In this document: positions 6,001-37,984 of the stretch, piece by piece
Layout of the letters: each line of letters begins with the position of its first letter
Position numbering within the stretch: the stretch's first letter is position 1
NCBI GenBank assembly: GCA_040389385.1
Contig: JAZKAA010000001.1
Span: 1 to 61,847 of the forward strand
DNA from: Patescibacteria group bacterium
Lineage (GTDB): Bacteria; Patescibacteriota; Minisyncoccia; Phycocordibacterales; SBAW01
Length of the DNA stretch: 61,847 bases
Direction of reading: 5' to 3'
Notes under the pieces: model-generated
The model's database searches: none
What the model saw: only the letters and a program-made list of their open reading frames with translations
What the model was told of the DNA's origin: nothing
Translations under genes and position numbers: made by a program

Positions 6001-7997
6001 ATCTCAACGCCGCTAGTGGCAACATAGTTATAGGCGCATACGTTGATGCGGCCAATAACAATGCTAACGCGCAGCTCAATGTTGGAAATGTGCTCTTTGG
6101 CACCGGGCTCTATAACAGCACCACGGCCTCGGGTGCGGCTGTTACCAACGGCAACTTGGGCGTCGGTACGTCATCACCCTTTGCGCAGTTTTCTATCCAC
6201 GGCATCAACGGTAGTACCAACACGACGCTCTTTGCTGTCGCCTCCTCAACCGCCACGGCCACCTCGACACTCTTCTCTATAACAAATACCGGCAGCGTTG
6301 CGCTCGGCACCTCTACACCGTGGGCCTTGTTCTCTCTACAGGCGTCCACAACCAACATGATTGCAGGTCAGCCGCTCTTTGTGGTTGCATCCTCGAGCGT
6401 TAGTGGCAGCAGCGTCGCCACGCTCTTTAAGATAGACAATATAGGCAACGTGGGTATCAGCTCCACTTCACCAAACACGCTGCTTTCCGTCGGAGGCAAC
6501 GCTTACTTTGGGACCGGCACCGGGTCGACGCTTACCTTCCACGCAGGCACCATCAACTACCCCGTAACATCAACATCCACGATACTCAATCAGGCCAACA
6601 GCTTCTCCATCGCCACCTCGACCGCCGCAGGCAACGGCCCTGTCTTCTCCATCTCCGGCAACGGCGCAACGTCAACGATTATGTTCTTTGGTGCGACGTC
6701 TACGCTGCTCAACGTCGGCGGTGCGAGCGGCGTTACCGGTGCTGCTGCGACATTGCGCAACTACCTCATAGTCGGCGACGGCAAGACCAACGCTTCAGTC
6801 GCTATAGTCAAAGGCTCGCTCTGTGTCGACAGTGACGGATGGTGCGTCGCGTCAACGACACAGGCTGGCGGCGGCGGTGGCTCGATAGCCGCGCGCGACT
6901 CGGTGCGTGTGGGCAATACCGACTTGGCCGAAATGTACGTCTCTTCTACGACGCTCAACAAAGGTGACATCATTGCTACCGACGGAGGCTTTGCTATCAG
7001 GGCTGCACAGGGCGACACCAAACACAAAGTCATCGGTATTATATCCAGCGACCCGGGACTCGTGCTTGGCGCAGCGCCCGACGACGACGGCAGAAACAAA
7101 TATCCGGTAGGCTTGGCGGGACGCGTACCGGTCAATGTGTCGCTGCAAAATGGCCCGATTGCCGTGGGCGACCGTATTACACTTTCCTCTACGCCGGGCG
7201 TCGGTATGAAGGCAGGTCCGTTTGACGCCTCGGTGGGTATCGCGCTCGAGGCATACGACGGCACGGCGACCAGCAGCGTGCTCGCCTTCCTTACCCTGCA
7301 GCAGGGGACTGATATTGCGGCTATTTCGCAAGCGTTGCTCGGCACCACTACTCCCACGAGCACGCCGGCGTACGTCTCGGCCAGCATCCTTGGCTCGGCC
7401 AGCGACGCACTGCGCTCGGTGCTCGACGATACTTTGGCGGGCTTTGCCTTGCTCGGCCAAAAGGGCGTGCGCATGATGGGTGATGTGATGGCTGCGAGCG
7501 TGGGTATATTTGACAAGGTGTTTGCCTCGCATGTGTACGCCGACACGGTTACTGCCCACACGTTGTGCTTGGGCGATACCTGCGTCGACGAGCAACAACT
7601 CAAGGGCCTGCTCAACGCAACCAGCACACCGCAGCCCGACCCGGTAATGTCTGACCCGACACCTGTTATAGAAATAAATGGCAATAACCCGGCATATGTA
7701 CCGCTCCATGCCAGCTACAGCGACCTGGGCGCCATTATCACCGGCCCGACAGACGCAGACCGCAACTTGGGAATCAGCCTTTTGCTGGATGGGGTAGCGG
7801 TACCCTCTATATATATAGACACCGCCACCACAAGTGAGTACTGGGTAACCTACCGTGCGACCAACCAAGGGGGGTTTGTCGGCGAGGCACGCCGCAAAGT
7901 AGTGGTGTATGACCCCAACTTTGGTCAGCCGGACATGGGTACGGCAACCTCGACGGACCCCGGCGACACATCAACCAGTACACCTCCTACGCCATAA
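1..7997 (+). CDS. Giant repetitive cell-surface/adhesin-like protein, 5'-partial (>2649 aa)
   Basis: The frame of the GTG at 48 stays open back to the window edge and ends at TAA 7995-7997. It has at least 8 copies of a ~50-aa module (G-N/S-V/L-G-I/V-G-T-T/S-S-P-F-A-K/R-F/L-S-I ... TTLFAI.SST..ATTTLFS-I/V-SNTG). Three blocks of N-x-A-I/V-G-x-x-A-L repeats look like Hep_Hag/YadA-head repeats. Composition is Thr/Ser/Gly/Ala-rich. The C-terminus resembles a tail fibre (see findings). Confidence 0.85.
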   Translation, partial: LSANQIVYTNNAKQEVSVATGTVAAGTGITVTGNQYIIGSGLTITNTIGYPFVGNATNTLIAFNGGLSSASTTLTGNFVFANATGTNATTTNFAVTGTASTTALIVSNAGGVAGCATFDTVGTISNTHTACGSGSSSYPFALTGNATSTLTQFNGGLTAYASTTIGSGTQIGGLTISGGATTTGNSYLAGNVGIGTQPDAVGALNVGGAVNLTMQTNAFNTTSIYTALVIGSTTGASAGNGGLYAIGRFNKANEPFAALSGWDDASNRQLYFGGGGWQTPEATEQFFYTATTYNENNNAALKRGYLAADGSVYWGGSITATHGGTGATLSILGTGNVGVGTTSPLALLTVATPPGATGSVGNLFMVASSTPTATTTLFSVSNTGSTTLFQIPSALLTTNAAGTIVGTSSLGVAYGGTGSTTLGAILAGGGSSIYSVATGTVAAGTGITVTGNQYIIGSGLTITNTIGYPFTATNNATGTLTQFNGGLTAFASSTIGNGTAGLTISGNSTTTGNSYFASNVGIGTTSPFARLSIHANNGDTATTLFAIGSSTATATTTLFSILNTGNVGIGTSSPFAALSIYATASSTNRTLFAIASTSNVAGVFSTSTLFSISNIGVINTNPSGTTSVLTMNGQNFLTGSLRVGGFGSVYLGVDAGASDPGPTGNVFSNVGIGYQALTAVTGIGGAGGTENVAIGSGVLGNLTGTTGGGNSNVAIGDGALGSATGADGNSSHDSNNVAVGISALSINKGGSDNTAVGLIALKLNITGNENVAIGEGASQNNLSATSTVAIGLNAAAGGDFINHYNAQGYTVVGYQAGASIRTGSDYNTLIGYKAGSSVTTGFANLVLGTSQTASNLTTGSGNILIGNNAFATTSGSGNGLNIGGLVFGQLPATSTAFKLPTSGSVGVGTSSPFAKFSIHSNNGDTATTLFAIGSSTASATTTLFSISNTGTIHTSLVSCDTIDADSNGNLLCGTDQTSTGAANPFTWSTNYNVVTAATSSAIWAQSGIFASSTSHFVSADFSTGATSSAFAISNIASGNILKTTTGGSLVAAVAGSDYITGAGLAAAFPFTATTNFGTTANSTSTAIWFQNGLQASSTARLSDISTIGILNFASTTFNASSTLISINGQSFLSASTSATVRNLFLGLSAGSNVRSSTNSTGIGYKALFNATSSSAVNNTALGAEALAGNANDSSGGYNTAVGTFALHSNSSGSTNTAIGAGALQFNSSGANTTALGAFAGGQSGGSNDTFVGAGTALLSFGDRSTAVGAAALYGDYGEGAPNTGAGPDNTAIGYSAGGFIDGGYGNTTLGSYAGQNVITGYNNILVGYNTLATSSTAVNTLNIGNFIFGNLPATTSSATKKLTLPTTGSLGVGTSSPFAKFSIHSNNGDTATTLFAIGSSTASATTTLFAITNTGTIDTALTTGCVQSDSSGILSSTGVACGSGGGSYPFALTGNATSTLTQFNGGLTAFASSTIGNGTQTGGLTISGGATTTATSTLAGLIVNSGNVGIGTASPQSALEIDDNSGGSPHYLLRLVNTFVGGGPQEGILFYGPNSTNPADRNWANNTNVNQEGDFAIFSSADNTSLPVSSSGTKLEILSNGNVGLNNDRNPGVTLSVASGNAQIGYAAGQTAPSNGLIVSGSLGVGTSTPWGKFSINNSTSDTGGQPLFVVASSTATATTTLFSISNTGSVLIGTSTNTTLSATNPAFVTIDSGTATSEEGLAVLGNVNDFYEMNVKNLSSGSAAQSCVTATGNTGTLTTNFLSGCVNSTTFNNPQPYNAGFAGDSNLISLANNFYLAQGTSGKNTFILNGGVGTSSIAIAISSTNNNVGIGTTSPFAKFSIQATSTETNTTLFAIASSTASATTTLFSVSNTGTINLKLDASTSTLATFAGQTFLTASTTGFNTGLGLNSLSKTTSGSQNVGLGYSALGQLTTGTQNTAIGSGALSGSAISGSNNTAVGYNSMATANSGNADNTTLGSVTGQNIFGSRNIVIGSNAGFDLNAASGNIVIGAYVDAANNNANAQLNVGNVLFGTGLYNSTTASGAAVTNGNLGVGTSSPFAQFSIHGINGSTNTTLFAVASSTATATSTLFSITNTGSVALGTSTPWALFSLQASTTNMIAGQPLFVVASSSVSGSSVATLFKIDNIGNVGISSTSPNTLLSVGGNAYFGTGTGSTLTFHAGTINYPVTSTSTILNQANSFSIATSTAAGNGPVFSISGNGATSTIMFFGATSTLLNVGGASGVTGAAATLRNYLIVGDGKTNASVAIVKGSLCVDSDGWCVASTTQAGGGGGSIAARDSVRVGNTDLAEMYVSSTTLNKGDIIATDGGFAIRAAQGDTKHKVIGIISSDPGLVLGAAPDDDGRNKYPVGLAGRVPVNVSLQNGPIAVGDRITLSSTPGVGMKAGPFDASVGIALEAYDGTATSSVLAFLTLQQGTDIAAISQALLGTTTPTSTPAYVSASILGSASDALRSVLDDTLAGFALLGQKGVRMMGDVMAASVGIFDKVFASHVYADTVTAHTLCLGDTCVDEQQLKGLLNATSTPQPDPVMSDPTPVIEINGNNPAYVPLHASYSDLGAIITGPTDADRNLGISLLLDGVAVPSIYIDTATTSEYWVTYRATNQGGFVGEARRKVVVYDPNFGQPDMGTATSTDPGDTSTSTPPTP

Positions 7998-8188: not shown

Positions 8189-11100
8189 ATGGCTTTACCG
8201 CGGTACAATTTAGCTAAGCAGCACATGATTTTTTTAAAGCACTTACATAAGCTCACGCGCCGGGAGTTACATACTCTTGGCGGCTTGTGCGCCGGCACCT
8301 CTTTTTTGTTGTTTGTTGCGTTGGGTATATCGGGCAACTTTCCTAATCTGCCGGAGTCGTTAAAACTTGTGCTCAGTCAACAAGGAAACGCGCAAACGGC
8401 TACGGTATATAACAGCAGCACAAGCTACACAGTGCCGCCGGGCGTAACCAGCGTATATGTGCAGGTATACGGCGCCGGCGGAGGAAACGATTACAGCAGC
8501 ACGTTTGCGGGTTCGTGTGGCGGCTACGGCGTATACATTAACGGCAACGGTCCCGGCGCCTCCGGTGGCTACACCAATGGGATGATACCCGTCACTCCGG
8601 GCCAGGTGCTTAGCGTTGTTGTCGGTACGGTCAATGGGGGAGGTGCGCCCGGTGCCGGTCCGGGCTACGGCGGCGGGTACTCGGGCGTGTTTGACGGTAA
8701 CCCACAACAGTCGACTGCGCTCATGGTGGCCGGCGGCGGCGGCGGCGCGGGTAGGTATGTGGTGATAGCAAACTATGCCGGATACTGCGGTATCGGAAAT
8801 GCCGCCGGATCGGCTCCCGGCGCAGGAGGAGGAGCAAACGGTGCGGGTACCGGGGTGCTGACGGGCGGCGGCGCAGGCGGATATGGTGGAGGTGGTGGTG
8901 CCGGCTACTATGGAGGTGCGGGCGGTCAGAGTAGCGGCACAAACGGCAGCGGCGGCGCAGGTGGCTCCGGCTATTGCGCGCCAAGCCTCGCCAACTGCAC
9001 AACATCCTCAGGTGGCGGCGCGGGAGCGGCCGGCACTGGCTCGGTATCCATTGTGCCAAGTACCGCAGTGCTCAGCATTTCGGCCACGCCGCAGTCGGTC
9101 GCTGCGGGCGGTACCTCCAACATCGCGTGGAATGCGACCGGCGTCGTTGCCAATAGCTGCACTATCTCAAGCGGACAAGGCCCGCTTGGCTCGCAGGGTC
9201 TCGGCACTGACGTCTCGGGCAATGGCAGCCACTTTGCACTTGGGAACATCAGCGCCCAGGACCAGGTGAGCGATACACCCACCAACAGCTTTGCGACGCT
9301 CAACCAAATATATTACTCCATACAGACCTACTCCAAAGGCACCGTGCAAGACGCGGGCCTCGCGGCTAATGGCGGCTATGGCGCCGCTACCGGCTGGCAG
9401 CTTACCTCGGGCAAGTGGTATTGGGAGTATGCAGTGCAGCCGGGTGCTAAATCCGGCGGCTGGCCAATAGTGGGAGTATTTAAAGACACCACGAGCGGCT
9501 CAGCATATCGGTTGTATCCAGGGCATAACAATGACGACGGCATAGGCTACGGCGCTGACGGGACTACCTACTTTGACACCGGAAGCCGCGGTACGCTTGC
9601 ATCCTTTACCGCTGGTGACGTCATCGGCGTCGCTTACGATGCCGACACGGGCAAGGTCTACTTTTCTAAAAACGGGACGTGGCAAAACAGCGGCAACCCT
9701 ACGGCCGGCACAGGCTATCTCGCGATTGTAAAAGGCGGTTACCCGGGCCTTTCGAGTTATTACGGTAAGACGATAGTTAACTTTGGGCAACTCGCCGCCG
9801 TAACCTCCGCCCGCGTCTATTCTATCCCCGGCATCTACGCCTACGCGGTTCCGGTGGGCTACTCATCTATTACAGTGTCGGTCGCGGGAGCGGGCGGCGG
9901 CGGCACGGGTGGTACCGCCAAAATCAACTGCGACAAGTACAACAATTGCGTTTACCAGCCGGGGTCAGCTGGCGCCGGGGGTACCGCTAGCGCCTTTTAC
10001 GCCACGAACGCCTCCGGCGGCGGGGGAGGCGGCGTCAACGGCGGCGCAAGCGGCGGCGACACCAACACGGTCGCCGGTGGCGCGTCCGGCGGTGCCGGCG
10101 GTGCCGGTAGCGGCGGCACCGGGGGCGTCGGCGGCAATGGCGGCTTGGCCGTTAAAACCTACGGAGTGGGAGTTTTGTCCGGCAATATACAGGTTGTCGT
10201 AGGTTCCGGCGGTGCGGGTGGCGGTGGCGCTTGCAATGCTAAAGACAAATACAACAATTGCATTGGCTATGAGCCAGCGGGAGCCGCGGGTGCCAATGGC
10301 GCAGTCACCATCCAAGCCACGGGAGCACCCACCACCGGGGGAGGAAACTTTTACTTCCCGCCGCCGAGCGGGTACAACGCGATTTCGACCGCCAACTTGC
10401 CCGCGCCGGCGGTGGCCCAGCCTGCAAACTACTTTGGCGCCACCACCTACACCGGCACCGGCCAGAGCCCGCAGACTGTCGGCGGGCTTAACTTTGCTCC
10501 TGACCTGGTCTGGATTAAAAATCGCGCCGGTGCCTTTTGGAACACGCTCTCCGACACAACCCGCGGACCAAACAGCGACCTCTTTAGCAACAGCACTAGC
10601 GCGGCCACACCCAATGACGCCAACGGCTGGCTAAGCTCCTTTAGTACCAACTCGTTTGCAGTCGGGGGGCAGTGCAGCGCACTCTCCGGCAACACTAACC
10701 TCATCGGCAACAATTATATTTCCTGGGCGTGGAAAAAGTCTCCCACAAGCGGCATGGACATTGTCTCCTATACCGGCGACGGCACGAGCAACCGGAGCAT
10801 CGCCCACGCGCTCGGCACGACGCCCGACTTTATTATGGTGAAGCGTACCGACAACACCGGCGATTGGTTTGTATGGAGCTCGGCCATGGGCTCAAACAAC
10901 TACCTCAAGCTCAATACCCAGGACGCGGCCAGCACCGTCAACTCGCCGTGGGGCGTGGCGACGATGAGCACGACCAACTTTACGGTCACGGCAAACGCGA
11001 CCAACAACGCCAACCTCGCGGGCGCCAATTATGTAGCCTATCTCTTTAGCAATCGCGACGGCTTCCAAAAAAGCGGCAGCTACGTCGGCAACGGCACCGC

Positions 11101-14100
11101 CGACGGGCCGGTCATCTATACCGGCTTTAAACCCAAGTTTGTAATGATACGCTCATTGCAAGCGGGCAACTTGGAGTCTTTGATGTACGACTCGTCACGC
11201 GACACGTCTAATCCAGCAACTCATTATATAAGTGCGGGTTTTAACTCTACGGGCGTTGAGCTCACAAGCAGTGGAGATATCGATATTCTTTCGAACGGTT
11301 TTAAAGTGCGTAATACGACCTCGTCAGGAAACAACTCAGGTCAGACGTTCGTTTACATCGCCTTTGCCGATGTGCCGTTTAAGTCGGCATCGGCGGCCAA
11401 TGGTTACAGCGTCCCCAACTCGGCACGGTTTGACGCGAGCAACAATGCCTACTTATCGCACACCAACACGGCTGTCGGTGCGACCACCAAAGGCACCGTC
11501 TCGTTTTGGATGAAGCGGGGGAGTATCTCGGGCAGCCGCATGAACGTGCTTAGCGCTGGCAACAACGCAGAGATGATAGGCCCGAGCAATGACTCAAACG
11601 TGGACACACTGTGGGTGCGCCTTGCCAACGGCTCCGACATGAACTTTGGCGGTACGGCCTCCAACATGGCCAAGCTACGCGACCCCACTGCCTGGGACAA
11701 TATAGTAGTAGCGTGGGACACGACACAGGCAACCGCTGCAAACCGCGTGCATGTCTACCGCAATGGTATTGAGCAACCGCTCGTCGCCGGCACGTATCCT
11801 GCGCAAAATGCCACCGTTTCTCTTTTTAACAGTGGGGTAGCTGCCAACATCGGTCGCGACATTGCTAATGCGGCATACTACTTCGACGGCAATCTTGCCG
11901 ACTTCTATGCCGTTGATGGCTCGCAGCTGACTCCAAGCAGCTTCGGCGCAGCAGACTCCAACGGCTTTTGGAAGCCCAAGGCTTACAGCGGCACCTACGG
12001 CACCAACGGCTTTTATTTCAACTTCCAAAACGCGCTCAACATGGGCGCTGATGCATCGGGTCGCGGCAACAACTTTACTCCCAACAATATTTCCGCGGTT
12101 GACCAAATGCCCGACACACCGACCGACAATTACGCGACGCTCAACCAAAACAATTATTACTCGGGCTACCCCAAAGGCGTTGTGCAGGGAGGAGGCCTTG
12201 CGGCTAACGGCAATTATGGCACCGTGGCAGACTGGCAGCTCACAACAGGCAAGTGGTACTGGGAGAACGTTATCGGCGGCTCAAACGGCGGCTGGCCTAT
12301 GCCCGGCGTCTTTAGCGATCCGACCAGCGCCGTCACAGGCAGAGCATATCCGGGGCACTCCAACGACTACGGGTTCGGGTACTTTCAATCGGGGACTGTC
12401 TATAGTAACGGCTCACCCCAACCGGCTGTCGTATCTCCCTTTAACAACGGTGACATCATCGGTGTCGCCTACGATGCTGACACGGGCAAGGTCTACTTTT
12501 CTAAAAACGGCGTGTGGCAAAACAACGCCAGCCTGAACCTAATACCCACGATGACGGGGCAGACGACCTCCGGCGTCACCATAACCGACTCGACTGAGTA
12601 CAGCACCGACTACTCGGCATGGCGTACCGCCGACCGCAACTCGGGCTCCGGCTGGGACGCGTACCCCACGCCACCTAGCGTCGCCGCGCCACAGTGGATG
12701 CGCACCGACTTTGGCGCATCTAACGGCAAGACGGTCGGCTCCTACTCGATACAAATCTGGCCCGCTGTGGGCTCCTACGACCCGCTCGACTTTGCGCTCG
12801 AGGGCTCCAACGACTCCGCCACCTGCTCGGCGGGCAACGGTACGGCCGGCAGTACGTGGACTATTCTTGACATCGAGACAAACGCTCTCTGGAGCTATGC
12901 CTCTCAGGCACAGACCTTTTCTGTGCCGGTCGGTAACCAAGCGAGCTATCGCTGCTACCGCCTTAAGGTAACGAGAAGCAACGGCAACTCGCAGCTGCTC
13001 ATATCAGAGTTTGGCCTCTACGTGGCTACAAGTCCTAACCCTGCTGTTGACGGGAGCGTGAGCCCTGTCGGCACCGTGACCAATGGTTGGCCCGGACTCG
13101 CGAGCTACTACGGCAAAACTACGGTCAACTTCGGCCAAGGCTCGCCCACGACACTGTTTGGAGATGCCTCAAACTACGGGCGCGTCCTCTTACCTGTCGT
13201 GGGTCAGCCAACGCCATCAGGCACCATCGTTAAGCTTGGCTCGGCAAGCGGGTTCTTTAATGGTTTAAGCGCGCTTACTTCGCCGCAAAGCAGCGAGCTC
13301 AACATGTCCGGCGACTACACTATAGATTTGTGGGCGTATCCGACATCGCTAGGCACAAGCGGAGGGCTCGTTTCGCGCGACTATAGTGCCGGCTACACCC
13401 CGTACCTTGTATATCAAAGTGGCAGTACCTTTACCTTTTACTCTTCAGCAGTTGGTGGTGACTGGTCGATAGCCTCAGCACAACCGATTTGTACAGGGGT
13501 CACTATAAACACCTGGTACCATTTGGCAGTGGTGCGCTCGGGCAATACGTACCGCACCTTTTGCAACGGTACGCAGACCGCAACCTGGAGCTCGGCCGCA
13601 ACGCCATGGGCCGCGCCCTATCCGCTGGTGCTGGGCAGGCAGGCCACCGGCGGACCCTACTTTGTGGGCTATCTCGATGAAGTGCGCATAAGCAACACCG
13701 CGCGTTGGACATCCAACTTTACGCCGCCTACAAGCGCCTACTCGAGCGATGCCAACACGCTCTTCTTGGCGCATATGGACAACGAGCGCAGTAGCTTTTA
13801 CAAGAGCGCGTCCGACGGTTACTTTGCCTACACGCCGCCGAGCGGCTACAAAGCGCTCTCGACCAATAACTTGGCCGCACCTGCAATAGCCAAGCCATCC
13901 AACTACTTTGACGCCAAAGCCTACAGCGGCTCGGGCGGCTCTCCGAGCTTTGACCCGATAAATAAAGACAGCTTTATAACGCTGTCCAACAACAACTTCG
14001 ACGCAAACTCCTCAACCAACACCTACTGGAACACGCTCTATGGCACCAACAGCTTCTCTGCAGGCAAATGGTATGCGGAGTTTAAGATAGGTGCGGCCTA

Positions 14101-17100
14101 CTCAAACACCATCGGCATCGGCGATGCCACAAAGCGTCTCACGGGCACGGCCTCGCAGCAGCTCGGCCAGTTTGCCAACGAGTACGCTTACAACCCGGAG
14201 AACAATCGTTTGTACAGCAACAATGTAATAACCAGCGGCTATCCAACAGTAGTGGCGGGGGATGTCGTGATGGTCGCGGTTGATATGGACGCGGGCTTGA
14301 TATGGTTCGGCAAAAACGGAGCGTGGTTTAACAGCGGCAATCCGGCGACGGGCACCGGTGCTCAGTTTACCGGGGTAACCGGCTCGAAGGTTTTTGCGGC
14401 TTCGTTGCTTGCGGGCGACGGTACTCTCCAGGCCGAGTTTGGCCAAAGTGGCCGCCCTGGTAGCACCAACTACCCGGCTGCGGGAGGCAACTTCTGGTAT
14501 CAGCCACCGACGGGCTTTTCCGCGCTCGCGGCCCAGGGCGGCGCGCAGGAGATAGGACTCAGCTTCCAGCCCGACCTGGTGTGGATCAAAAACCGCACGA
14601 CAACATACTGGAATACGCTGGTCGACTCGCTGCGCGGGGCGGGGAGAGATGTATTTTCCAACAGCACCTCTGCGCAGACCTTTAATGACACCAACGGCAC
14701 GGTTAGCGCCTTTACACCCAGCGGTTTTACGGTGGGCGGCAGCTGCACCGGTGCCGGCGGCGGCAATGTTAACACTCTCAACAGCACTTACAGCGCATGG
14801 CTCTTAAAGGAGTCGCCCGCGGCGGGCTTTGATATCGTAAGTTACACCGGCAACGGCACCACCAACCGCTCCGTGGCGCAGGCACTCGGTACGACGCCCG
14901 ACTTTATCATCACCAAGGCCGTCAACGCCATCGGCGATTGGTTTGTCTACGACAAAGCGATGGGGGAGAGCAGCTTTGCCAAGCTCAACACCACCGACGC
15001 ACAAAGCGAGGTCTCCTCGCCGTTTAGTATCGACCTCATTCCCAAGATGACTGCTGTCACAACCAACGGGGTTACAATGAGCGGTGGTGGCAACTCAGGC
15101 GTGTGCGAGTATCAGGCGGCGTGGCATGCCGGCGACAAAATTGTAGCACCGAGCGATTATTGGGATGGCTACAACTCTACTACTCCCTCGCTCTGCACTC
15201 CCTCGATTTCAAACCCTGTGTGGCTCAAGGTTGACTTTGGTACGGCAAAAACCGCCACGGCTTACTCTATCTCGTCATTCCAGTATCCGTCGGTGTACTA
15301 CGACCCAATAGATTTTACTCTGCAGGGCTCCAACGACAATACCGCATGGACAACGCTCGACACCCAAACAAGTGTAGGTTGGACTCCGTTTGAGTCGAAG
15401 ACCTTTACCGTCGCAACCCCCGGCAGTTATCGCTACTATCGCGTCAGCACCACCCGCATTGGCGCTGGCGGCAACGAATTTATAATCCAAGAGCTGCACC
15501 TCTATGGCGCAGGGACGCTCAATACCGCGTCCAACTTTGTTGTCTCGGGCGCGCTCAACACCGCCTCTACCAACTACATCTCCTACCTCTTTTCCAACCG
15601 CGAGGGGGTACTCAAATCCGGCATTTACAACGGCAACAACTCCACCGACGGCCCCTTTATCTACACAGGCTTCAAACCCAAATGGGTGATGATTAAGGAT
15701 GTTAGTACGGGCAACGCCTACACGCATTGGAGCGTATATGACAGCGCACGGGACCCGAGTAACCCGCTCACAAAAATGCTCTACCCCGATGCCGCGCTGG
15801 TCGAGGGGAACGACGGCTACTGCAGCACGGCAAATTGTCCGATAGACTTTCTTGCAAACGGGTTTAAGGTTCGCTCCGGCGGGTATTGGAACACCAACTA
15901 TCAACCAGAAGCATACGCCTATATCGCCTTTGCCGACGTGCCGTTTAAAGAGAGCGCCGACACCAGCGTGTCGACTATCCCCTATGCGTTGCGTTTTAGC
16001 GCCAACAACAGCGACTATCTCTCACACAATTTTGCGCTTGCCTCCACCGACGCCAAAAAGGGCACCGTGAGCTTCTGGCTTAAACGTGCAGCGATAAACG
16101 GGGGCTGGCAGTTCCTCTATGGCGGTTCAGGGGGCATATATCTGGACCCGAGCGACCACATACGCATATACGACGCGGCGTACGACATATACAGCACTCA
16201 GACTTTCCGCGACCCATCGCAGTGGATACACTTTGTGTTTGCGTTCGACAGCACTGCCGCGGCCGGCCAGCGCGTCAAAGCCTGGGCCAACAATGTGCCG
16301 CTCACCTTCACGGCATATGCGGAGCCGGCGGCAAACGCGCCGTTCAACATCCTATCTACCGGTGCGCGCGCCTTTGGTATGTCGGGAGGGACTAATTACC
16401 CCCTCGACGGCTACCTCGCCGAGGCCAACGTGGTCGACGGGCTGGCGCTCGACCCGAGTAGCTTTGGCCAGTACGACGCCAATGGAGTGTGGAAGCCCGC
16501 AACCTACGGCGGGCAATATGGCGTCAACGGCTTCCATCTCAATTTTGCCACGACTGCCGTCAGTACGCCCACCAACAGCGGCAATGTGACGGTTGGGCCG
16601 CTTTTCAATACGAGCACCTACACCCTGCAGTGCCAACCGCTGCCGGGCGAGGGGAGCGGGTACCTATCCAAGAGCACCACGGTTACCGTCTCGCCCAACC
16701 TGGTGCAACTGAGTGCCTGCAACAGCTTGGGGAGCTGCTCAACCAATAGTGCATCGTCGGTGTATATCACTCCCAACACTTCGGCACTCCTCAGCTGGAA
16801 CGCCCCCACTGCGGATGCAAACTCCTGCACAGTTACATCGCTTGCGGCGGGTGTAAGTGGGACTATCAGCCCCGCCAATACCAACAGCGCAACCAATGTC
16901 ACGAGCCCGGCCGTCAACGCCAATACCACCTATACGCTTACCTGCCAGATAAACGGCACGCCGGCCACTGCAAGTGCCGCGGTGAGTGTCCAACAAGCCT
17001 GCGCAAGCTCGGGCTCCACGCTCTCCTGCGCTAACCAATGCGTCTTTACTTCCGACTCCGTCAACGCGCCGGCGACATTGTCGTGGTGCTGCCCGACAGG

Positions 17101-17521
17101 CTCCGCGGTGGGCACCGGCTTCTCTACCGGCGGAGCCACCAAAGGCTCGACAAACGTAACCGACAACGGCACGTACGGATTGCAGTGTCCGACCGGGAGT
17201 GGCTCGGTAACACTCGCCGGCGTAGCGCCCGCGGTAACTAACCCGCTGGTTGCATCTCCCACCCGTGTGCGCAAAGGGGGGACTACGTCGCTCTCGTGGA
17301 GCGTAAACTCGCTGAGCCCCGGCACCTCCTGCTCGATAACCCCTGCGCTCAGCAATGGCATGGCCGTATGGGACGGCTCGGGTACCTCATGGACCGGCAC
17401 AAACGTGCGCAGTCTGCCGATCAATAGCCCCACCAAATTTACGCTTACCTGCACCAACGGCAGCGGCACCGTCAGCGCCTCGGCCAGTGTCGGCCTGCTT
17501 CCGACGTTCCAGGAGATTTAA
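8189..17521 (+). CDS. Giant (3110 aa) membrane-anchored multi-domain recognition protein: glycine-rich x2, SPRY x3, LamG/concanavalin-like x3, discoidin x2, C-terminal Ig-like repeats
   Basis: Single uninterrupted ORF with an N-terminal hydrophobic span (GGLCAGTSFLLFVALGISG). SPRY signatures: GKWYWE.. followed by IGVAYDADTGKVYFSKNG.WQN. Discoidin-like signatures: W.(R/K).DFG ... DP.DF.L.GSND ... YR.YR. LamG-like signatures: GTVSFW.KR ... DG.LA.....DG.L.PSSFG, and WYHLAVVRSGNTYRTFCNG...YLDEVRISN. The glycine-rich domain starts Y.VP.GV.S..V.V.GAGGG. Confidence 0.85.
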   Translation: MALPRYNLAKQHMIFLKHLHKLTRRELHTLGGLCAGTSFLLFVALGISGNFPNLPESLKLVLSQQGNAQTATVYNSSTSYTVPPGVTSVYVQVYGAGGGNDYSSTFAGSCGGYGVYINGNGPGASGGYTNGMIPVTPGQVLSVVVGTVNGGGAPGAGPGYGGGYSGVFDGNPQQSTALMVAGGGGGAGRYVVIANYAGYCGIGNAAGSAPGAGGGANGAGTGVLTGGGAGGYGGGGGAGYYGGAGGQSSGTNGSGGAGGSGYCAPSLANCTTSSGGGAGAAGTGSVSIVPSTAVLSISATPQSVAAGGTSNIAWNATGVVANSCTISSGQGPLGSQGLGTDVSGNGSHFALGNISAQDQVSDTPTNSFATLNQIYYSIQTYSKGTVQDAGLAANGGYGAATGWQLTSGKWYWEYAVQPGAKSGGWPIVGVFKDTTSGSAYRLYPGHNNDDGIGYGADGTTYFDTGSRGTLASFTAGDVIGVAYDADTGKVYFSKNGTWQNSGNPTAGTGYLAIVKGGYPGLSSYYGKTIVNFGQLAAVTSARVYSIPGIYAYAVPVGYSSITVSVAGAGGGGTGGTAKINCDKYNNCVYQPGSAGAGGTASAFYATNASGGGGGGVNGGASGGDTNTVAGGASGGAGGAGSGGTGGVGGNGGLAVKTYGVGVLSGNIQVVVGSGGAGGGGACNAKDKYNNCIGYEPAGAAGANGAVTIQATGAPTTGGGNFYFPPPSGYNAISTANLPAPAVAQPANYFGATTYTGTGQSPQTVGGLNFAPDLVWIKNRAGAFWNTLSDTTRGPNSDLFSNSTSAATPNDANGWLSSFSTNSFAVGGQCSALSGNTNLIGNNYISWAWKKSPTSGMDIVSYTGDGTSNRSIAHALGTTPDFIMVKRTDNTGDWFVWSSAMGSNNYLKLNTQDAASTVNSPWGVATMSTTNFTVTANATNNANLAGANYVAYLFSNRDGFQKSGSYVGNGTADGPVIYTGFKPKFVMIRSLQAGNLESLMYDSSRDTSNPATHYISAGFNSTGVELTSSGDIDILSNGFKVRNTTSSGNNSGQTFVYIAFADVPFKSASAANGYSVPNSARFDASNNAYLSHTNTAVGATTKGTVSFWMKRGSISGSRMNVLSAGNNAEMIGPSNDSNVDTLWVRLANGSDMNFGGTASNMAKLRDPTAWDNIVVAWDTTQATAANRVHVYRNGIEQPLVAGTYPAQNATVSLFNSGVAANIGRDIANAAYYFDGNLADFYAVDGSQLTPSSFGAADSNGFWKPKAYSGTYGTNGFYFNFQNALNMGADASGRGNNFTPNNISAVDQMPDTPTDNYATLNQNNYYSGYPKGVVQGGGLAANGNYGTVADWQLTTGKWYWENVIGGSNGGWPMPGVFSDPTSAVTGRAYPGHSNDYGFGYFQSGTVYSNGSPQPAVVSPFNNGDIIGVAYDADTGKVYFSKNGVWQNNASLNLIPTMTGQTTSGVTITDSTEYSTDYSAWRTADRNSGSGWDAYPTPPSVAAPQWMRTDFGASNGKTVGSYSIQIWPAVGSYDPLDFALEGSNDSATCSAGNGTAGSTWTILDIETNALWSYASQAQTFSVPVGNQASYRCYRLKVTRSNGNSQLLISEFGLYVATSPNPAVDGSVSPVGTVTNGWPGLASYYGKTTVNFGQGSPTTLFGDASNYGRVLLPVVGQPTPSGTIVKLGSASGFFNGLSALTSPQSSELNMSGDYTIDLWAYPTSLGTSGGLVSRDYSAGYTPYLVYQSGSTFTFYSSAVGGDWSIASAQPICTGVTINTWYHLAVVRSGNTYRTFCNGTQTATWSSAATPWAAPYPLVLGRQATGGPYFVGYLDEVRISNTARWTSNFTPPTSAYSSDANTLFLAHMDNERSSFYKSASDGYFAYTPPSGYKALSTNNLAAPAIAKPSNYFDAKAYSGSGGSPSFDPINKDSFITLSNNNFDANSSTNTYWNTLYGTNSFSAGKWYAEFKIGAAYSNTIGIGDATKRLTGTASQQLGQFANEYAYNPENNRLYSNNVITSGYPTVVAGDVVMVAVDMDAGLIWFGKNGAWFNSGNPATGTGAQFTGVTGSKVFAASLLAGDGTLQAEFGQSGRPGSTNYPAAGGNFWYQPPTGFSALAAQGGAQEIGLSFQPDLVWIKNRTTTYWNTLVDSLRGAGRDVFSNSTSAQTFNDTNGTVSAFTPSGFTVGGSCTGAGGGNVNTLNSTYSAWLLKESPAAGFDIVSYTGNGTTNRSVAQALGTTPDFIITKAVNAIGDWFVYDKAMGESSFAKLNTTDAQSEVSSPFSIDLIPKMTAVTTNGVTMSGGGNSGVCEYQAAWHAGDKIVAPSDYWDGYNSTTPSLCTPSISNPVWLKVDFGTAKTATAYSISSFQYPSVYYDPIDFTLQGSNDNTAWTTLDTQTSVGWTPFESKTFTVATPGSYRYYRVSTTRIGAGGNEFIIQELHLYGAGTLNTASNFVVSGALNTASTNYISYLFSNREGVLKSGIYNGNNSTDGPFIYTGFKPKWVMIKDVSTGNAYTHWSVYDSARDPSNPLTKMLYPDAALVEGNDGYCSTANCPIDFLANGFKVRSGGYWNTNYQPEAYAYIAFADVPFKESADTSVSTIPYALRFSANNSDYLSHNFALASTDAKKGTVSFWLKRAAINGGWQFLYGGSGGIYLDPSDHIRIYDAAYDIYSTQTFRDPSQWIHFVFAFDSTAAAGQRVKAWANNVPLTFTAYAEPAANAPFNILSTGARAFGMSGGTNYPLDGYLAEANVVDGLALDPSSFGQYDANGVWKPATYGGQYGVNGFHLNFATTAVSTPTNSGNVTVGPLFNTSTYTLQCQPLPGEGSGYLSKSTTVTVSPNLVQLSACNSLGSCSTNSASSVYITPNTSALLSWNAPTADANSCTVTSLAAGVSGTISPANTNSATNVTSPAVNANTTYTLTCQINGTPATASAAVSVQQACASSGSTLSCANQCVFTSDSVNAPATLSWCCPTGSAVGTGFSTGGATKGSTNVTDNGTYGLQCPTGSGSVTLAGVAPAVTNPLVASPTRVRKGGTTSLSWSVNSLSPGTSCSITPALSNGMAVWDGSGTSWTGTNVRSLPINSPTKFTLTCTNGSGTVSASASVGLLPTFQEI

Positions 17522-30804: not shown

Positions 30805-31464
30805 ATGGATCTGGTAGTAGAAAAGCGTGATACCAAGAAAAAGGCTAAATCTCTCCGCGAGAAGGGCCTTTTGCCTGCGGTTATATACGGCCGCTCCGAG
30901 GAGTCGACCCCCATTTCTGTCGATGCCAAGGTATTCGGCAAGCTGTTTAAGACGGCCGGCGAGTCCACTATTTTGACTATCAAGGGTCTCGGCGAGGACC
31001 GTCAGGCGCTTATCCAAGAGGTAGACTTTGACGCGGTCAACGGCCAGCCGGTGCATGCCGACTTTTATGCAATCGAAAAGGGCCAAAAGGTAACCGTCTC
31101 CGTACCGTTTGAGTTTGAGGGCGTATCGCCGGCGGTTAAGGAGCTTGGTGGTATTTTGACCAAGGTTATGCACGAGCTGGAAATGGAGGTAGAGCCTGCA
31201 GAGCTGCCGCAGCACATTGTGGTAGATATTTCCAAACTTGAGGCGCTTGATAGCCAAATAAAAATCAGCGATTTGTCGTTGCCCAAGAGTGCCAAACTGT
31301 CGGTTGACGCCGATGAGGTGGTTGCGATGATTTCTGTGGCTAAAGAAGAGGTAGAGGAGGTTGCAGCACCGGTTGACCTCTCTGCAATAGCAATATCCGA
31401 AGAGCGCGGCAAGAAGCCTGACGAAGAGGGCGCCGCCCCAGCAGAAGGAGAGTCCAAAGAGTAA
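30805..31464 (+). CDS. rplY: 50S ribosomal protein L25 / general stress protein Ctc
   Basis: REKGLLPAVIYG, HADFYAI and the acidic C-terminal extension are typical of the long Ctc form. Confidence 0.9.
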   Translation: MDLVVEKRDTKKKAKSLREKGLLPAVIYGRSEESTPISVDAKVFGKLFKTAGESTILTIKGLGEDRQALIQEVDFDAVNGQPVHADFYAIEKGQKVTVSVPFEFEGVSPAVKELGGILTKVMHELEMEVEPAELPQHIVVDISKLEALDSQIKISDLSLPKSAKLSVDADEVVAMISVAKEEVEEVAAPVDLSAIAISEERGKKPDEEGAAPAEGESKE

Positions 31465-31466
31465 TT

Positions 31467-31490
31467 AAATCCCGCCACTCGGCGGGATTT
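31467..31490 (+). terminator. Hairpin terminator after rplY
   Basis: AAATCCCGCC-ACTC-GGCGGGATTT, followed by a weak, interrupted U-tract (CCGTTTAT). Confidence 0.5.
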
Positions 31491-31498
31491 CCGTTTAT

Positions 31499-31960
31499 AA
31501 AAAGCAGGAGAGGCGACCCGAAGGCCGCCTCTGAGAAATTATTGGGAATGGGAATCTTGTGTGCTTTACGAACCTTTGCTCGCAAGGCGTTCCCATTTCC
31601 GGTCAATCCCTAACAACCGCAGATCGCCAACCATCTTGGCGAAAAACGAACCTATCCGGACAGTTGCTAGTCCGAGGACTAGCGGTGATGGAGAGTCACC
31701 TCTCGGATAGGGCGTGGCAGGATAAATCCTGGAGATTTGGGCTACATTGCTGTGCCCGTCGATCTCTTTGGATCATTGAGCGAAGCCCACCGGTCTACCA
31801 CGCTTTCCAGCGTCCCCTCCAGGGGAGGGGACGCTAGCCCTCGAAATTTTGCAGTGTGGAAAGATCATCGTGGATTGTTTTGAGCTTGACTAGAGCTCTC
31901 TGCAATCCACTAAAGTCGCGGCCAAGTCATGGCTACCTCCTTTTCGAACAAAATATTAAT
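31499..31960 (-). ncRNA. Candidate structured non-coding RNA of unknown class (~440 nt); orientation inferred
   Basis: No ORF of 60 aa or more on the minus strand within this interval, apart from the 3' end of the 31340..31606 shadow ORF, which runs into rplY. At least 8 perfect or near-perfect hairpins are present (listed in the finding). On the minus strand there is a terminator with a C(UUCG)G tetraloop and a T-run at 31499-31532, and a TTGACG-17 nt-TATTAA promoter-like site at 31956-31984. Confidence 0.45.
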
Positions 31961-32060
31961 ATCATATTAAATATTATTCGTCAAGTATCTCTAAAAGAAA
32001 ATGGGATTTTCATAGTAAGCCAAACCAGCCCTTCTACGTCTGTTAGAATATAGATAACTA

Positions 32061-33446
32061 ATGAAGGCACGGACTTTTGTATTGGGGCTGAGTACCTTTG
32101 TTGCCTTGGGCACAGCGGTCTACTGCATGGCCACTATTATCCCGCGCGCACAGGCGCAGGAGTTGACCCCGCAGGAGCGGGCCACGCTGCAGGCCCAGTA
32201 CGACCAGCTCCAGCAGGAGATAGCCCAGTACCAAAAGGTAATCGACGACACCAAAAATAAGGAAAAGAGCCTGCAGGGCGACGTAACCCAACTGGACGCC
32301 CAGATTAAAAAGGCGCAGGCCGAGATAAACCAGCGTACGCTCACTATCAACACGCTCACGAGCCAGATAACCCAAAAGGCAAAAAACATACAAACCCTGC
32401 AACAAAAAATAGACGCCGGCCACGACTCGCTCGCCAAAATACTGCGCGAAAAGGACCAAATAGACACGACCTCGCTCATGATACTGGCACTGTCCTCCGG
32501 TAGCCTCTCGCAGCTGATGGCCGACACCGACAACATCGACTCGGTCAATCAAAACCTACAGGACCTCTTTGATGAGCTGCGCGGGGTCAAGCAGCAGACC
32601 GAGGCCGAAAAGGCCGCGCTTGCAGCCCAGCAGGACAAGCAGCTCGATGCCAAGCACGATGCGCAGGTGCTGAAAGCTGCCGTCAGTACGGCCCAGCAGC
32701 AAAAGACCACGGAGCTTACCGTAACCAAGGGTCAGGAGAGCGCCTACAACAAAGTATTGGCGCAAAAGCAGGCGCAGGCGCAACAAATACGCAATGCGTT
32801 GTTTAACCTCCGCGACACCAAGGGTATTACCTTTGAGTCGGCGCTCCAGTACGCCACCGTAGCGCAGCAAAAGACCGGCGTCCGCGCCGCGCTTATTTTG
32901 GCAATCCTTTCGCAAGAGTCAGACCTTGGCGCCAATATCGGCAGCTGCTATGTAGGCAACCTCTCGACCGGTGACGGCTCGCGGATTAAAGACGGCACCG
33001 CGTACGAAAAGGTAATGAAGGCACCGCGCGACACCACGCCGTTTGAGGCCATTACCTCGGCGCTGGGCCTGAGCTGGCAGTCGACGCCTGTGTCGTGTCC
33101 CTTGGGCAGGACCTACACCTCCAGTCGTGGCTACGGCGGCGCCTTGGGCCCGTCGCAGTTTATACCGTCGACCTGGCAGCTGTTTGCTCCCCGTATAGAA
33201 AAAGGCTTGGGCGAAGGCACGGCCAACCCGTGGAATCCGCAAGACGCCATTATGGCCACCGCGCTCTATATGTCGGACTTGGGTGCAGGTAGCCAAAGCT
33301 ACACCGCCGAGCGCAACGCCGCCTGCAAGTACTACTCGGGGCGCTCCTGCGACACGCGCAGCCCCATCAACTACACCTACGGCAACTCGGTAGTAACCAA
33401 GGCAGACACCTTTCAGAAAAACATCGACTTCTTGAACAATTTGTAG
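32061..33446 (+). CDS. Secreted coiled-coil protein with C-terminal lytic transglycosylase (SLT_2/MltB-like) domain
   Basis: Signal/TM at the N-terminus. About 230 aa of Q/K/E-rich heptad sequence follows, then AALILAILSQESDLG (catalytic Glu context) and GGALGPSQFIPSTW. Confidence 0.75.
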   Translation: MKARTFVLGLSTFVALGTAVYCMATIIPRAQAQELTPQERATLQAQYDQLQQEIAQYQKVIDDTKNKEKSLQGDVTQLDAQIKKAQAEINQRTLTINTLTSQITQKAKNIQTLQQKIDAGHDSLAKILREKDQIDTTSLMILALSSGSLSQLMADTDNIDSVNQNLQDLFDELRGVKQQTEAEKAALAAQQDKQLDAKHDAQVLKAAVSTAQQQKTTELTVTKGQESAYNKVLAQKQAQAQQIRNALFNLRDTKGITFESALQYATVAQQKTGVRAALILAILSQESDLGANIGSCYVGNLSTGDGSRIKDGTAYEKVMKAPRDTTPFEAITSALGLSWQSTPVSCPLGRTYTSSRGYGGALGPSQFIPSTWQLFAPRIEKGLGEGTANPWNPQDAIMATALYMSDLGAGSQSYTAERNAACKYYSGRSCDTRSPINYTYGNSVVTKADTFQKNIDFLNNL

Positions 33447-37908: not shown

Positions 37909-37984
37909 GCCACCGTAGCTCAGTTGGTAGAGCACCTCATTTGTAATGAGGCTGTCAGGGGTTCGAATCCTCTCGGTGGCTCCA
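37909..37984 (+). tRNA. tRNA-Thr (anticodon UGU), CCA encoded
   Basis: Manual cloverleaf: acceptor GCCACCG/CGGTGGC, D-arm GCTC-AGTTGGTA-GAGC, anticodon arm CCTCA-TTTGTAA-TGAGG, variable loop CTGTC, T-arm AGGGG-TTCGAAT-CCTCT, discriminator T, then CCA. Confidence 0.9.

Follow-up and report, generated by a model that had tools for sequence, protein, structure and literature searches.

A conserved, structured non-coding RNA gene of about 450 nt on the minus strand beside rplY in a Patescibacteria group bacterium

What occupies the long spacer that follows rplY in a 61,847-nt stretch of DNA from a Patescibacteria group bacterium (contig JAZKAA010000001.1; the whole stretch is called the window below)? 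Many genes of the window touch or are separated by less than 100 bp; this spacer, 31465-32060, separates rplY from a gene for a coiled-coil SLT_2 lytic transglycosylase, and no open reading frame (ORF) longer than 92 aa runs across the locus within it. The longest ORF there, searched as a check for an RNA mistranslated by gene callers elsewhere, had no relative among 5.8 billion proteins. The spacer carries a conserved, single-copy, non-coding gene unit on the minus strand, with a covariation-supported fold and a near-invariant core, which lies at a different chromosomal location in another lineage and is present in RNA libraries.

An earlier inspection of the letters without database searches (the sequence-only reading) had described the locus as an ORF-free, hairpin-dense candidate RNA. 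Both properties held up: no credible ORF was found, and every hairpin it listed was recovered in place, among them CAGGA/TCCTG (31718-31731), GATC (31760-31775), the 12-bp stem (31809-31835) and CGCCAA/TTGGCG (31625-31641). On the minus strand, the minimum free energy (MFE) of the 451-nt segment is -193 kcal/mol, compared with -144 ± 5.7 in dinucleotide shuffles (z = -8.5, with 0 of 100 as good). Folding of the plus strand is just as good (z = -8.25), and folding energy alone therefore cannot give the strand.

Homologues showing both conservation and covariation, on which the sequence-only reading had staked its candidate, were found in public sequencing runs. In a k-mer index of such runs, the full sequence occurred only in one watershed metagenome (X1; runs and the variants taken from them carry X numbers), while a further 17 runs, two of them metatranscriptomes, contained 4-10% of the sampled words; these runs come from soil, rhizosphere, groundwater, landfill, wastewater and mangrove. 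Short homologous contigs share 90-99% identity over 31612-31941, and the 3' domain in X2 is 82% identical. The X20 copy, ~83% identical, matches 31511-31805 inside a 1920-nt contig from the same watershed study, with flanks of 157 and 1470 nt. Across the 14 close runs, unchanged blocks of 31-44 nt (31706-31748, 31776-31806 and 31898-31941, without a listed change) occur together with peripheral parts that are 82-90% identical; within the first block, X20 differs at 31723, 31724 and 31737, and X16 at 31724.

From difference tables of short Logan contigs, 15 partial variants were rebuilt by hand and aligned (alignments A1 and A2). The helices scored were those read from the window sequence, and the following figures come from A2. 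Standard pairs fill 96.7% of 766 cells, compared with 31-43% when the partners are slid. Pairs changed on both sides number 14 vs 4.7 ± 1.7 in shuffles (0 of 500 as high), and the covariation score is 0.032 vs 0.018 (again 0 of 500). The locus thus displays the conserved secondary structure with compensatory substitutions by which structured non-coding RNAs are generically recognized.

About a dozen helices make up the fold (Table 1), in which the outer H2, H3, hpB, hpF, H6 and H7 covary around a core of ~150 nt (31835-31650) that is mostly invariant across the sampled lineages, junction strands included. Specifically, the inner stem of H2 in X6 and X7 changes from C-G to U-A at 31885/31895 and from U-A to C-G at 31886/31894, with A-U replaced by G·U at 31897. 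H3 is maintained by G·U wobbles in X3, X6, X10 and X12 and as a perfect 10-bp stem in X15; in X20, an unrelated perfect 11-bp hairpin (ACCGUAACUCC/GGAGUUACGGU) stands in its place. Three pairs of hpB are changed on both sides (U·G to G-C or G·U, G-C to A-U, and U-A to A-U), and hpF includes a series from U-A through U·G to C-G as well as C-G to G-C in X20. H6 contributes one compensatory pair (C-G to U-A, X20); its exceptions are an A·C in X14 and a U·U in X20. At the base of H7 pairing is conserved, with two pairs changed on both sides; its apical part is variable and is replaced in X14 and X20.

The inner elements behave differently from this periphery. The junction strand UAGACCGGUGGGCUUCGCUCAA, Pa, hpC and the stem of hpD show no variation in the runs covering them (12-16 of the 16 aligned sequences), apart from the loop of hpC, which does vary. 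The hpE block ACUCUCCA is likewise unchanged in every covering run; the strand it pairs with differs in X13, X15 and X20. In fact, UAGACCGGUGGGCUUCGCUCAA and ACUCUCCA are retained in all covering variants, X20 included, while the helices adjacent to them change. RNAalifold offers a local hairpin, AGCGUGGU/GCUUCGCU, that competes with Pa, and both are invariant. Two further pairings were tried and discarded: a pseudoknot CAACUGU/GCGGUUG, which is not kept in X20, and a helix CUUUCCA/UGGAAAG, which changes without compensation.

As a separate observation, the hpE loop (GACUCUCC on the minus strand; 31687-31697) complements the last codons of the rplY mRNA (GGAGAGUC, 31444-31454). Since this match spans 8 nt only and the RNA is not beside rplY in X5, it is probably due to chance.

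The variants also settle the strand. Read on the minus strand, A1 (without X20) contains 40 G·U cells in 10 pair columns and 5 A·C cells, and a plus-strand reading would swap the two. The hpF loop CUCG becomes UACG or CACG, which are UNCG loops, and the hpC loop GCAA becomes GUAA, which conforms to GNRA; both statements are true on the minus strand only. This asymmetry, the loop identities and the T-run of the terminator place the RNA gene on the minus strand, the orientation that the sequence-only reading had favored. A protein-coding locus was ruled out. Variants have single-nucleotide indels within 31812-31856 as well as in the 3' arm, those in the variable linker excluding coding across 31836-31869; no ORF is conserved; and by our count substitutions in the indel-free core are not enriched at third positions of the one open frame.

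The limits of homology define the unit. Similarity to other runs begins precisely where the terminator U-run ends, at 31496, and extends to 31941 and more weakly to ~31971 (X6 and X10), indicating that promoter, RNA and terminator are conserved together. The predicted UUCG-loop terminator with its T-run is present and stands back-to-back with the rplY terminator at 31467-31490. The interval 31496-31537 is 100% identical in X5, and the terminator hairpin is kept in X2 and X20, the latter also retaining the U-run. The upstream promoter region is partly conserved in X6 and X10. These features put the inferred 5' end at 31945-31955, with the 3' end in the U-run 31499-31508. The proposed TTGACG-17-TATTAA promoter fared less evenly: its letters are in place, and a consensus promoter scan passed it over on account of the final A of the -10 hexamer. 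As a motif read from the letters, it is plausible but unproven as a promoter. Regarding expression, contigs of the RNA core occur in metatranscriptomes X4 and X18, which agrees with the transcripts that the sequence-only reading had required; the contigs are unstranded and carry no end information. With gyrB as an abundance yardstick on RNA and DNA runs, the universal gyrB motifs draw reads from all bacteria.

Table 1. Coordinates of the RNA gene, its predicted elements and the flanking genes (positions in the window; RNA letters as on the minus strand)
Feature	Position	Strand	Basis
RNA gene, predicted transcript ~450 nt	31499..31950	-	terminator, homology limits, fold, strand evidence
Candidate promoter: TTGACG (31984-31979), 17-nt spacer, TATTAA (31961-31956)	31956..31984	-	read from sequence
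Alternative -10, TATGAT	31966-31961	-	conserved in X6 and X10
AAAGGAGGU (AAAGGAGGT in DNA letters), 9-nt Shine-Dalgarno-type element	31935..31943	-	
H1 hairpin GCCA-UGACU-UGGC, contains the mini-ORF AUG	31933-31921	-	
Mini-ORF AUG ACU UGG CCG CGA CUU UAG (MTWPRL*), 5 nt past the Shine-Dalgarno-type element	31910..31930	-	
H2: outer stem GUGGAUUG/CAAUCCAC (pair in the sequence-only reading: GTGGATTG/CAATCCAC), inner stem GAGCU/AGCUC	31870..31910	-	
Variable linker; GAUGAUCUUUCC conserved, remainder with substitutions and 1-nt indels	31836..31869	-	
H3: perfect 12-bp hairpin AGCGUCCCCUCC-CCU-GGAGGGGACGCU	31809..31835	-	
Near-invariant core: Pa around the 22-nt strand and three hairpins	31712..31803	-	
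Pa closing helix GCGUGG/CCACGC	31803-31798 with 31717-31712	-	
22-nt invariant junction strand UAGACCGGUGGGCUUCGCUCAA	31797-31776	-	
hpB UGAUC-CAAAGA-GAUCG	31775-31760	-	
hpC GGGCACA-GCAA-UGU(A)GCCC	31757-31739	-	
hpD CAGGA-UUUA-UCCUG	31731-31718	-	
Three-way junction, Pb CCUAUCCG/CGGAUAGG (plus-strand letters CCTATCCG/CGGATAGG) with hpE and hpF	31651..31711	-	
hpE GGUGA-CUCUCCA-UCACC	31700-31684	-	
hpF CUAGUC-CUCG-GACUAG	31682-31667	-	
H6 CGCCAA-GAUGG-UUGGCG	31625..31641	-	
H7 long imperfect arm; base GGAA(A)UGGGAA/UUCCCAUUCC	31545..31600	-	
Intrinsic terminator: 10-bp stem AGAGGCGGCC-UUCG-GGUCGCCUCU, then CCUGCUUUUU (T-run)	31499..31532	-	terminator scan
rplY (L25/Ctc domains)	30805-31464		
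Coiled-coil SLT_2 lytic-transglycosylase gene	32061-33446	+	

Two findings reach beyond the sequence-only reading, namely the absence of the RNA from all related rplY loci examined and the near lack of Shine-Dalgarno (SD) motifs in the host. To place the locus among its relatives, we compared nine rplY loci from eight relatives (L004 and L005 encode the same protein) with L25 identities of 71-76%. In all nine, 30-120 bp separate rplY from the next gene and the RNA is absent. The order rplY-SLT_2-L31-RF-1 is kept in the six related loci that reach far enough; SLT_2 and RF-1 are present in L007, L015 stops ~300 bp past rplY, and L019 has different genes after rplY. In the spacers of L004-L011, the CGTCTGaTAgAAT promoter-like box of the downstream gene comes immediately after a terminator. 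This CGTCTGaTAgAAT promoter of the SLT_2 gene is retained in the window at ~32031-32043, downstream of the RNA. Together with the short spacers of the relatives, its retention identifies ~530 bp with the RNA gene as an insertion in this lineage. The rplY-RNA-SLT_2 arrangement was otherwise seen only in a same-strain 5-kb Logan contig (L001).

The unit is single-copy and has more than one address. X1 assembled it once, in one 5031-nt contig of even depth, and the 62-kb window holds one copy. In X5, the sequence left of 31496 reads ...VKEAGKHIS-stop, which is a GAPDH C-terminus (the gap gene of the window ends HVKEAGKRLQ, those of relatives HVKEAGKHI/L), so the RNA unit is found at two or more chromosomal sites. 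The RNA is missing from two relatives' gap loci (GAPDH identity 84% and 93%). No terminal inverted repeats were found at the locus. An imperfect 9-nt direct repeat, GGGATTTCC / GGGATTTTC at 31484-31492 and 32003-32011, flanks the inserted segment; by our estimate such a repeat is expected ~0.3 times by chance and is thus not evidence for a target-site duplication. A miniature inverted-repeat transposable element or other repeat element was ruled out on these grounds (one copy, no terminal inverted repeats, a direct repeat at chance level only).

With dnaE, gyrB, smc, gap and a class II aminoacyl-tRNA synthetase among its genes, the window itself is ordinary chromosome. Identity to the closest L25 proteins is 70-78%, and the named ones among these are annotated as Candidatus Adlerbacteria, Paceibacterota, Parcubacteria or 'Patescibacteria group'. 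No turn in skew marking a replication origin or terminus was found at the RNA locus, which was accordingly dismissed as either. Elsewhere in the window, two giant ORFs of 2649 and 3110 aa lie side by side on the plus strand at 48-7997 and 8189-17521.

The RNA appears restricted to a small Paceibacteria clade (Parcubacteria, near Candidatus Adlerbacteria). A 20-mer, GCGTGGCAGGATAAATCCTG, that is unchanged in all covering runs except X20 and X16 had no copy in 185,579 GTDB species genomes. A second 20-mer gave 0 matches in metagenome contigs of the Joint Genome Institute (JGI), and a pattern of 14 exact positions plus purine/pyrimidine degeneracy returned 3 AT-rich chance matches only from those contigs. 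Four words had no copy in IMG/VR, nor did blastn in distant mode find one in phage and plasmid collections; further k-mer searches with the 5' and 3' domains returned only the source run. X20 differs inside both no-match words, the GTDB 20-mer and the first JGI 20-mer, so these negatives bound close relatives only. The GTDB search gave only two identities of 23-26 nt to the RNA core (GGGCGTGGCAGGATAAATCCTG), both in Microcoleus metagenome-assembled genomes (L002 4958-4983 and L003 1916-1941) and located at the ends of a putative TnpB-type element, the rest remaining unaligned. The gene just downstream of this match is, from the look of its N-terminus, presumably TnpB/IS605-like. Because nothing else aligns, we judged the identity a chance match.

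Comparison with known RNA families was negative throughout, and by motif the sequence-only reading had been unable to match the locus to RNase P RNA, transfer-messenger RNA (tmRNA), signal recognition particle (SRP) RNA or a riboswitch. Rfam 15 (4227 models), applied to the whole window at gathering scores, returned nothing but a tRNA-Thr at 37909. With E relaxed to 10, a scan of 31400-32100 gave only terminator look-alikes and noise, the best at E 0.045 and 24 bits vs a gathering score of 60. ARAGORN found the tRNA-Thr and no tmRNA in the window. For RNase P RNA, there was no Rfam match up to E 10, the motifs GGAAAGUCC and ACAGAA..GGCUUA are absent and no P4-type long-range helix occurs. A tmRNA identity lacks both an Rfam match and tRNA-like ends; the RNA closes with a terminator hairpin, and its ORF begins with an AUG preceded by an SD. 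Rfam gave no 6S match, and the structure supported by MFE and covariation strings together local hairpins and junctions, in contrast to the rod with a central bubble of 6S/Ms1 RNA. SRP RNA had no match at E up to 10, and group I/II introns, self-cleaving ribozymes and HEARO/omega RNA had none in Rfam. No riboswitch or cis-leader model matched, and the minus-strand terminator faces the rplY 3' end, so no gene follows it. Short words resembling FMN and cobalamin riboswitch cores were set aside for want of Rfam support. We found no description of such an RNA in candidate phyla radiation (CPR) bacteria in the literature.

The 5' end holds the feature most suggestive of function. The sequence-only reading had pointed out an SD sequence and a 6-codon ORF there, and both are in the sequence (31943-31935 and 31930-31910). 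The element AAAGGAGGU complements the full canonical bacterial 16S rRNA 3' tail. As a 9-mer, AAAGGAGGT has two copies in the 62 kb, one here and the other inside smc, leaving this as the only intergenic copy. It is identical in X6 and X10 from 31941. The start regions of ~39 likely genes of the window (for example 24199, 29933, 29916-, 32061, 37821- and 59505) almost all lack an SD motif in the 22 nt before the start, and many carry a TAnnnT -10-like box 6-12 nt upstream of the ATG, which suggests, as far as these letters can tell, that leaderless or SD-independent initiation predominates in this host. Against such a nearly SD-free background, the 5' AAAGGAGGU is exceptional in the genome. It points to a likely contact with the small ribosomal subunit, either as ribosome binding site of the mini-ORF or as a stabilizer of the STAB-SD type. 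No difference is listed in X6, X7 and X10 over 31898-31941, and with this interval invariant, coding and structural constraints on the mini-ORF are indistinguishable.

Taken together, we give about an even chance to the reading that this is a new, clade-restricted, stand-alone structured non-coding RNA of ~450 nt that works in trans and probably serves as a binding platform. The invariant multi-helix core with its GNRA and UNCG loops would form a tertiary fold with a specific site, binding or active, for a protein, ligand or other RNA partner, and the variable hairpins would be scaffolding. At the 5' end, AAAGGAGGU would engage the 16S rRNA tail, driving the 6-codon ORF or, more likely, serving as a STAB-SD-type 5' stabilizer or ribosome tether. 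Purine-rich partners might be contacted through the conserved pyrimidine block ACUCUCCA.

Several points weigh against this reading. The rebuilt variants are approximate at contig ends and indels, and some positions may be wrong; the 5' and 3' domains are covered by only 1-3 sequences; and the core helices Pa, Pb, hpC and hpD are invariant, hence neither supported nor contradicted by covariation. The -10 hexamer is atypical and the transcription start is inferred from sequence, and the metatranscriptome contigs could reflect DNA carry-over. The family may be very narrow, or exact-word probes may have missed diverged copies. Finally, no partner gene or genomic association hinting at function was found, and a convergent housekeeping gene is the sole feature common to the known contexts (after rplY, after gap).

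Among the alternatives, a dual-function regulator resembling RNAIII survives best, with a smallish though real chance of being right. Here the SD and AUG would drive MTWPRL and CUCUCCA-type loops would pair with purine-rich mRNA sites. Size, the string of hairpins and a 5'-proximal SD lying 5 nt from an AUG are consistent with it, as are the persistence of ACUCUCCA in all covering lineages despite changed stem partners and the 8-nt complementarity to the rplY mRNA end. However, that complementarity is the probable chance match noted above, to a gene beside which the RNA does not lie in X5. Host genes rarely use an SD, so anti-SD targets would be few; the AUG is half buried in H1; no functional RNA-encoded peptide of this kind is known to be as short as six codons; and long invariant junction strands suggest a tertiary fold over seed pairing. 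A separate and bolder reading, which we regard as rather doubtful, would have a new class of large, tertiary-folded RNA specific to a Paceibacteria clade dock on the small subunit through a full SD/anti-SD duplex in a host whose mRNAs are mostly leaderless and SD-free. If true, this would be a dedicated ribosome-binding regulatory or catalytic RNA encoded by a gene that relocates within the chromosome.

The moved gene could also be explained by a ribozyme or an RNA of a mobile or selfish element, ORF-less and intron-like or guide-RNA-like, which we consider improbable. The insertion relative to nine related rplY loci, the other location in X5 and the patchy distribution fit this idea, and invariant multi-junction cores with GNRA/UNCG loops are typical of large catalytic RNAs. 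In contrast, the unit is single-copy with no terminal inverted repeats and only the non-significant 9-nt direct repeat, and it has its own promoter and terminator instead of exon flanks. No reverse transcriptase, TnpB, IscB or Cas gene adjoins it, the neighbors being rplY and the SLT_2-domain protein; group I/II introns, HEARO and self-cleaving ribozymes gave no Rfam match; and IMG/VR and the phage and plasmid collections lack it.

A very divergent housekeeping RNA (RNase P, tmRNA, 6S/Ms1-type or SRP) is unlikely, indeed very improbable. A length of 350-450 nt, an own promoter and terminator, a conserved core and visibility in metatranscriptomes, as for abundant stable RNAs, would suit it. Against this stand the failure to match Rfam to E 10, the lack of a tmRNA in ARAGORN and the absence of RNase P motifs, tRNA-like ends and a central-bubble rod; furthermore, a universal RNA would be expected in relatives, yet the shared word is absent from the 185,579 species genomes.

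We reject as scarcely credible a non-functional origin, whether insertion relic, decayed gene or chance palindrome-rich spacer. Its absence from relatives at the rplY site and the lack of a known function would allow this, but the 31-44-nt blocks unchanged in 14 close runs, compensatory changes above those of 500/500 shuffles, the kept promoter and terminator and the detected RNA do not. Rejected with still less hesitation is a plus-strand cis-regulatory leader (a riboswitch-like 5' untranslated region) of the SLT_2 gene: it would immediately precede 32061, share the strand of that gene and have a plus-strand fold of z -8.25, but 40 pair cells would become A·C mismatches, the UNCG/GNRA loops and post-hairpin T-run exist on the minus strand only, the SLT_2 gene retains its CGTCTGaTAgAAT promoter downstream of the RNA, and the unit lies beside gap in X5.

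The preferred reading, a stand-alone RNA acting in trans, matters for several reasons. CPR/Patescibacteria form a large, mostly uncultured share of bacterial diversity and have tiny genomes with little spare DNA. In such an economical genome, and in a gene-dense window, a conserved 450-nt RNA gene is likely important to its carriers. Bacterial non-coding RNA classes of more than 400 nt are few among those known, and most have proved to be ribozymes, ribonucleoprotein cores or unsolved puzzles. The apparently narrow distribution and a gene context without functional clue limit its value. An invariant core with a covarying periphery is well suited to probing, cryo-electron microscopy and pull-down, and a unique full SD in an SD-poor genome of leaderless type provides a concrete, testable link to the ribosome.

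Comparison with known systems places the RNA more closely. tmRNA, RNase P RNA and 6S/Ms1 are similar as RNAs of 180-450 nt with their own promoters and terminators and conserved cores, tmRNA also having a short ORF; unlike them, this RNA lacks the defining motifs and architectures and is sporadic rather than universal. Staphylococcus aureus RNAIII shares a size of ~500 nt, a chain of hairpins, a 5'-proximal SD with a small ORF, a pyrimidine-rich loop and its own promoter and terminator. It differs in that no homology and no agr-type context were found here, the ORF has 6 codons vs 26, the core looks like a tertiary fold and a nearly SD-free host offers few anti-SD targets. The STAB-SD of the Bacillus thuringiensis cryIIIA mRNA, an SD-type 5' sequence, reportedly binds the 16S 3' tail without productive translation. 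In both cases a perfect SD lies near the 5' end of a transcript, long-lived in that of cryIIIA (GAAAGGAGG there vs GAAAAGGAGGU here); the STAB-SD sits in an mRNA leader, whereas here the SD-type element heads a non-coding RNA.

The closest resemblance is to OLE, ROOL, GOLLD and raiA motif RNAs, which are alike in being several hundred nt long, in their covarying helices and conserved junction nucleotides, and in being stand-alone genes of narrow range whose context is silent on function. None of the four has a sequence or structure match to this RNA in Rfam 15. This RNA is smaller than OLE, ROOL and GOLLD, belongs to a CPR host and has its own 5' SD-like element and mini-ORF. It is therefore a new family within a known kind, the orphan large structured bacterial RNAs, with a distribution that is narrow as far as the probes reach.

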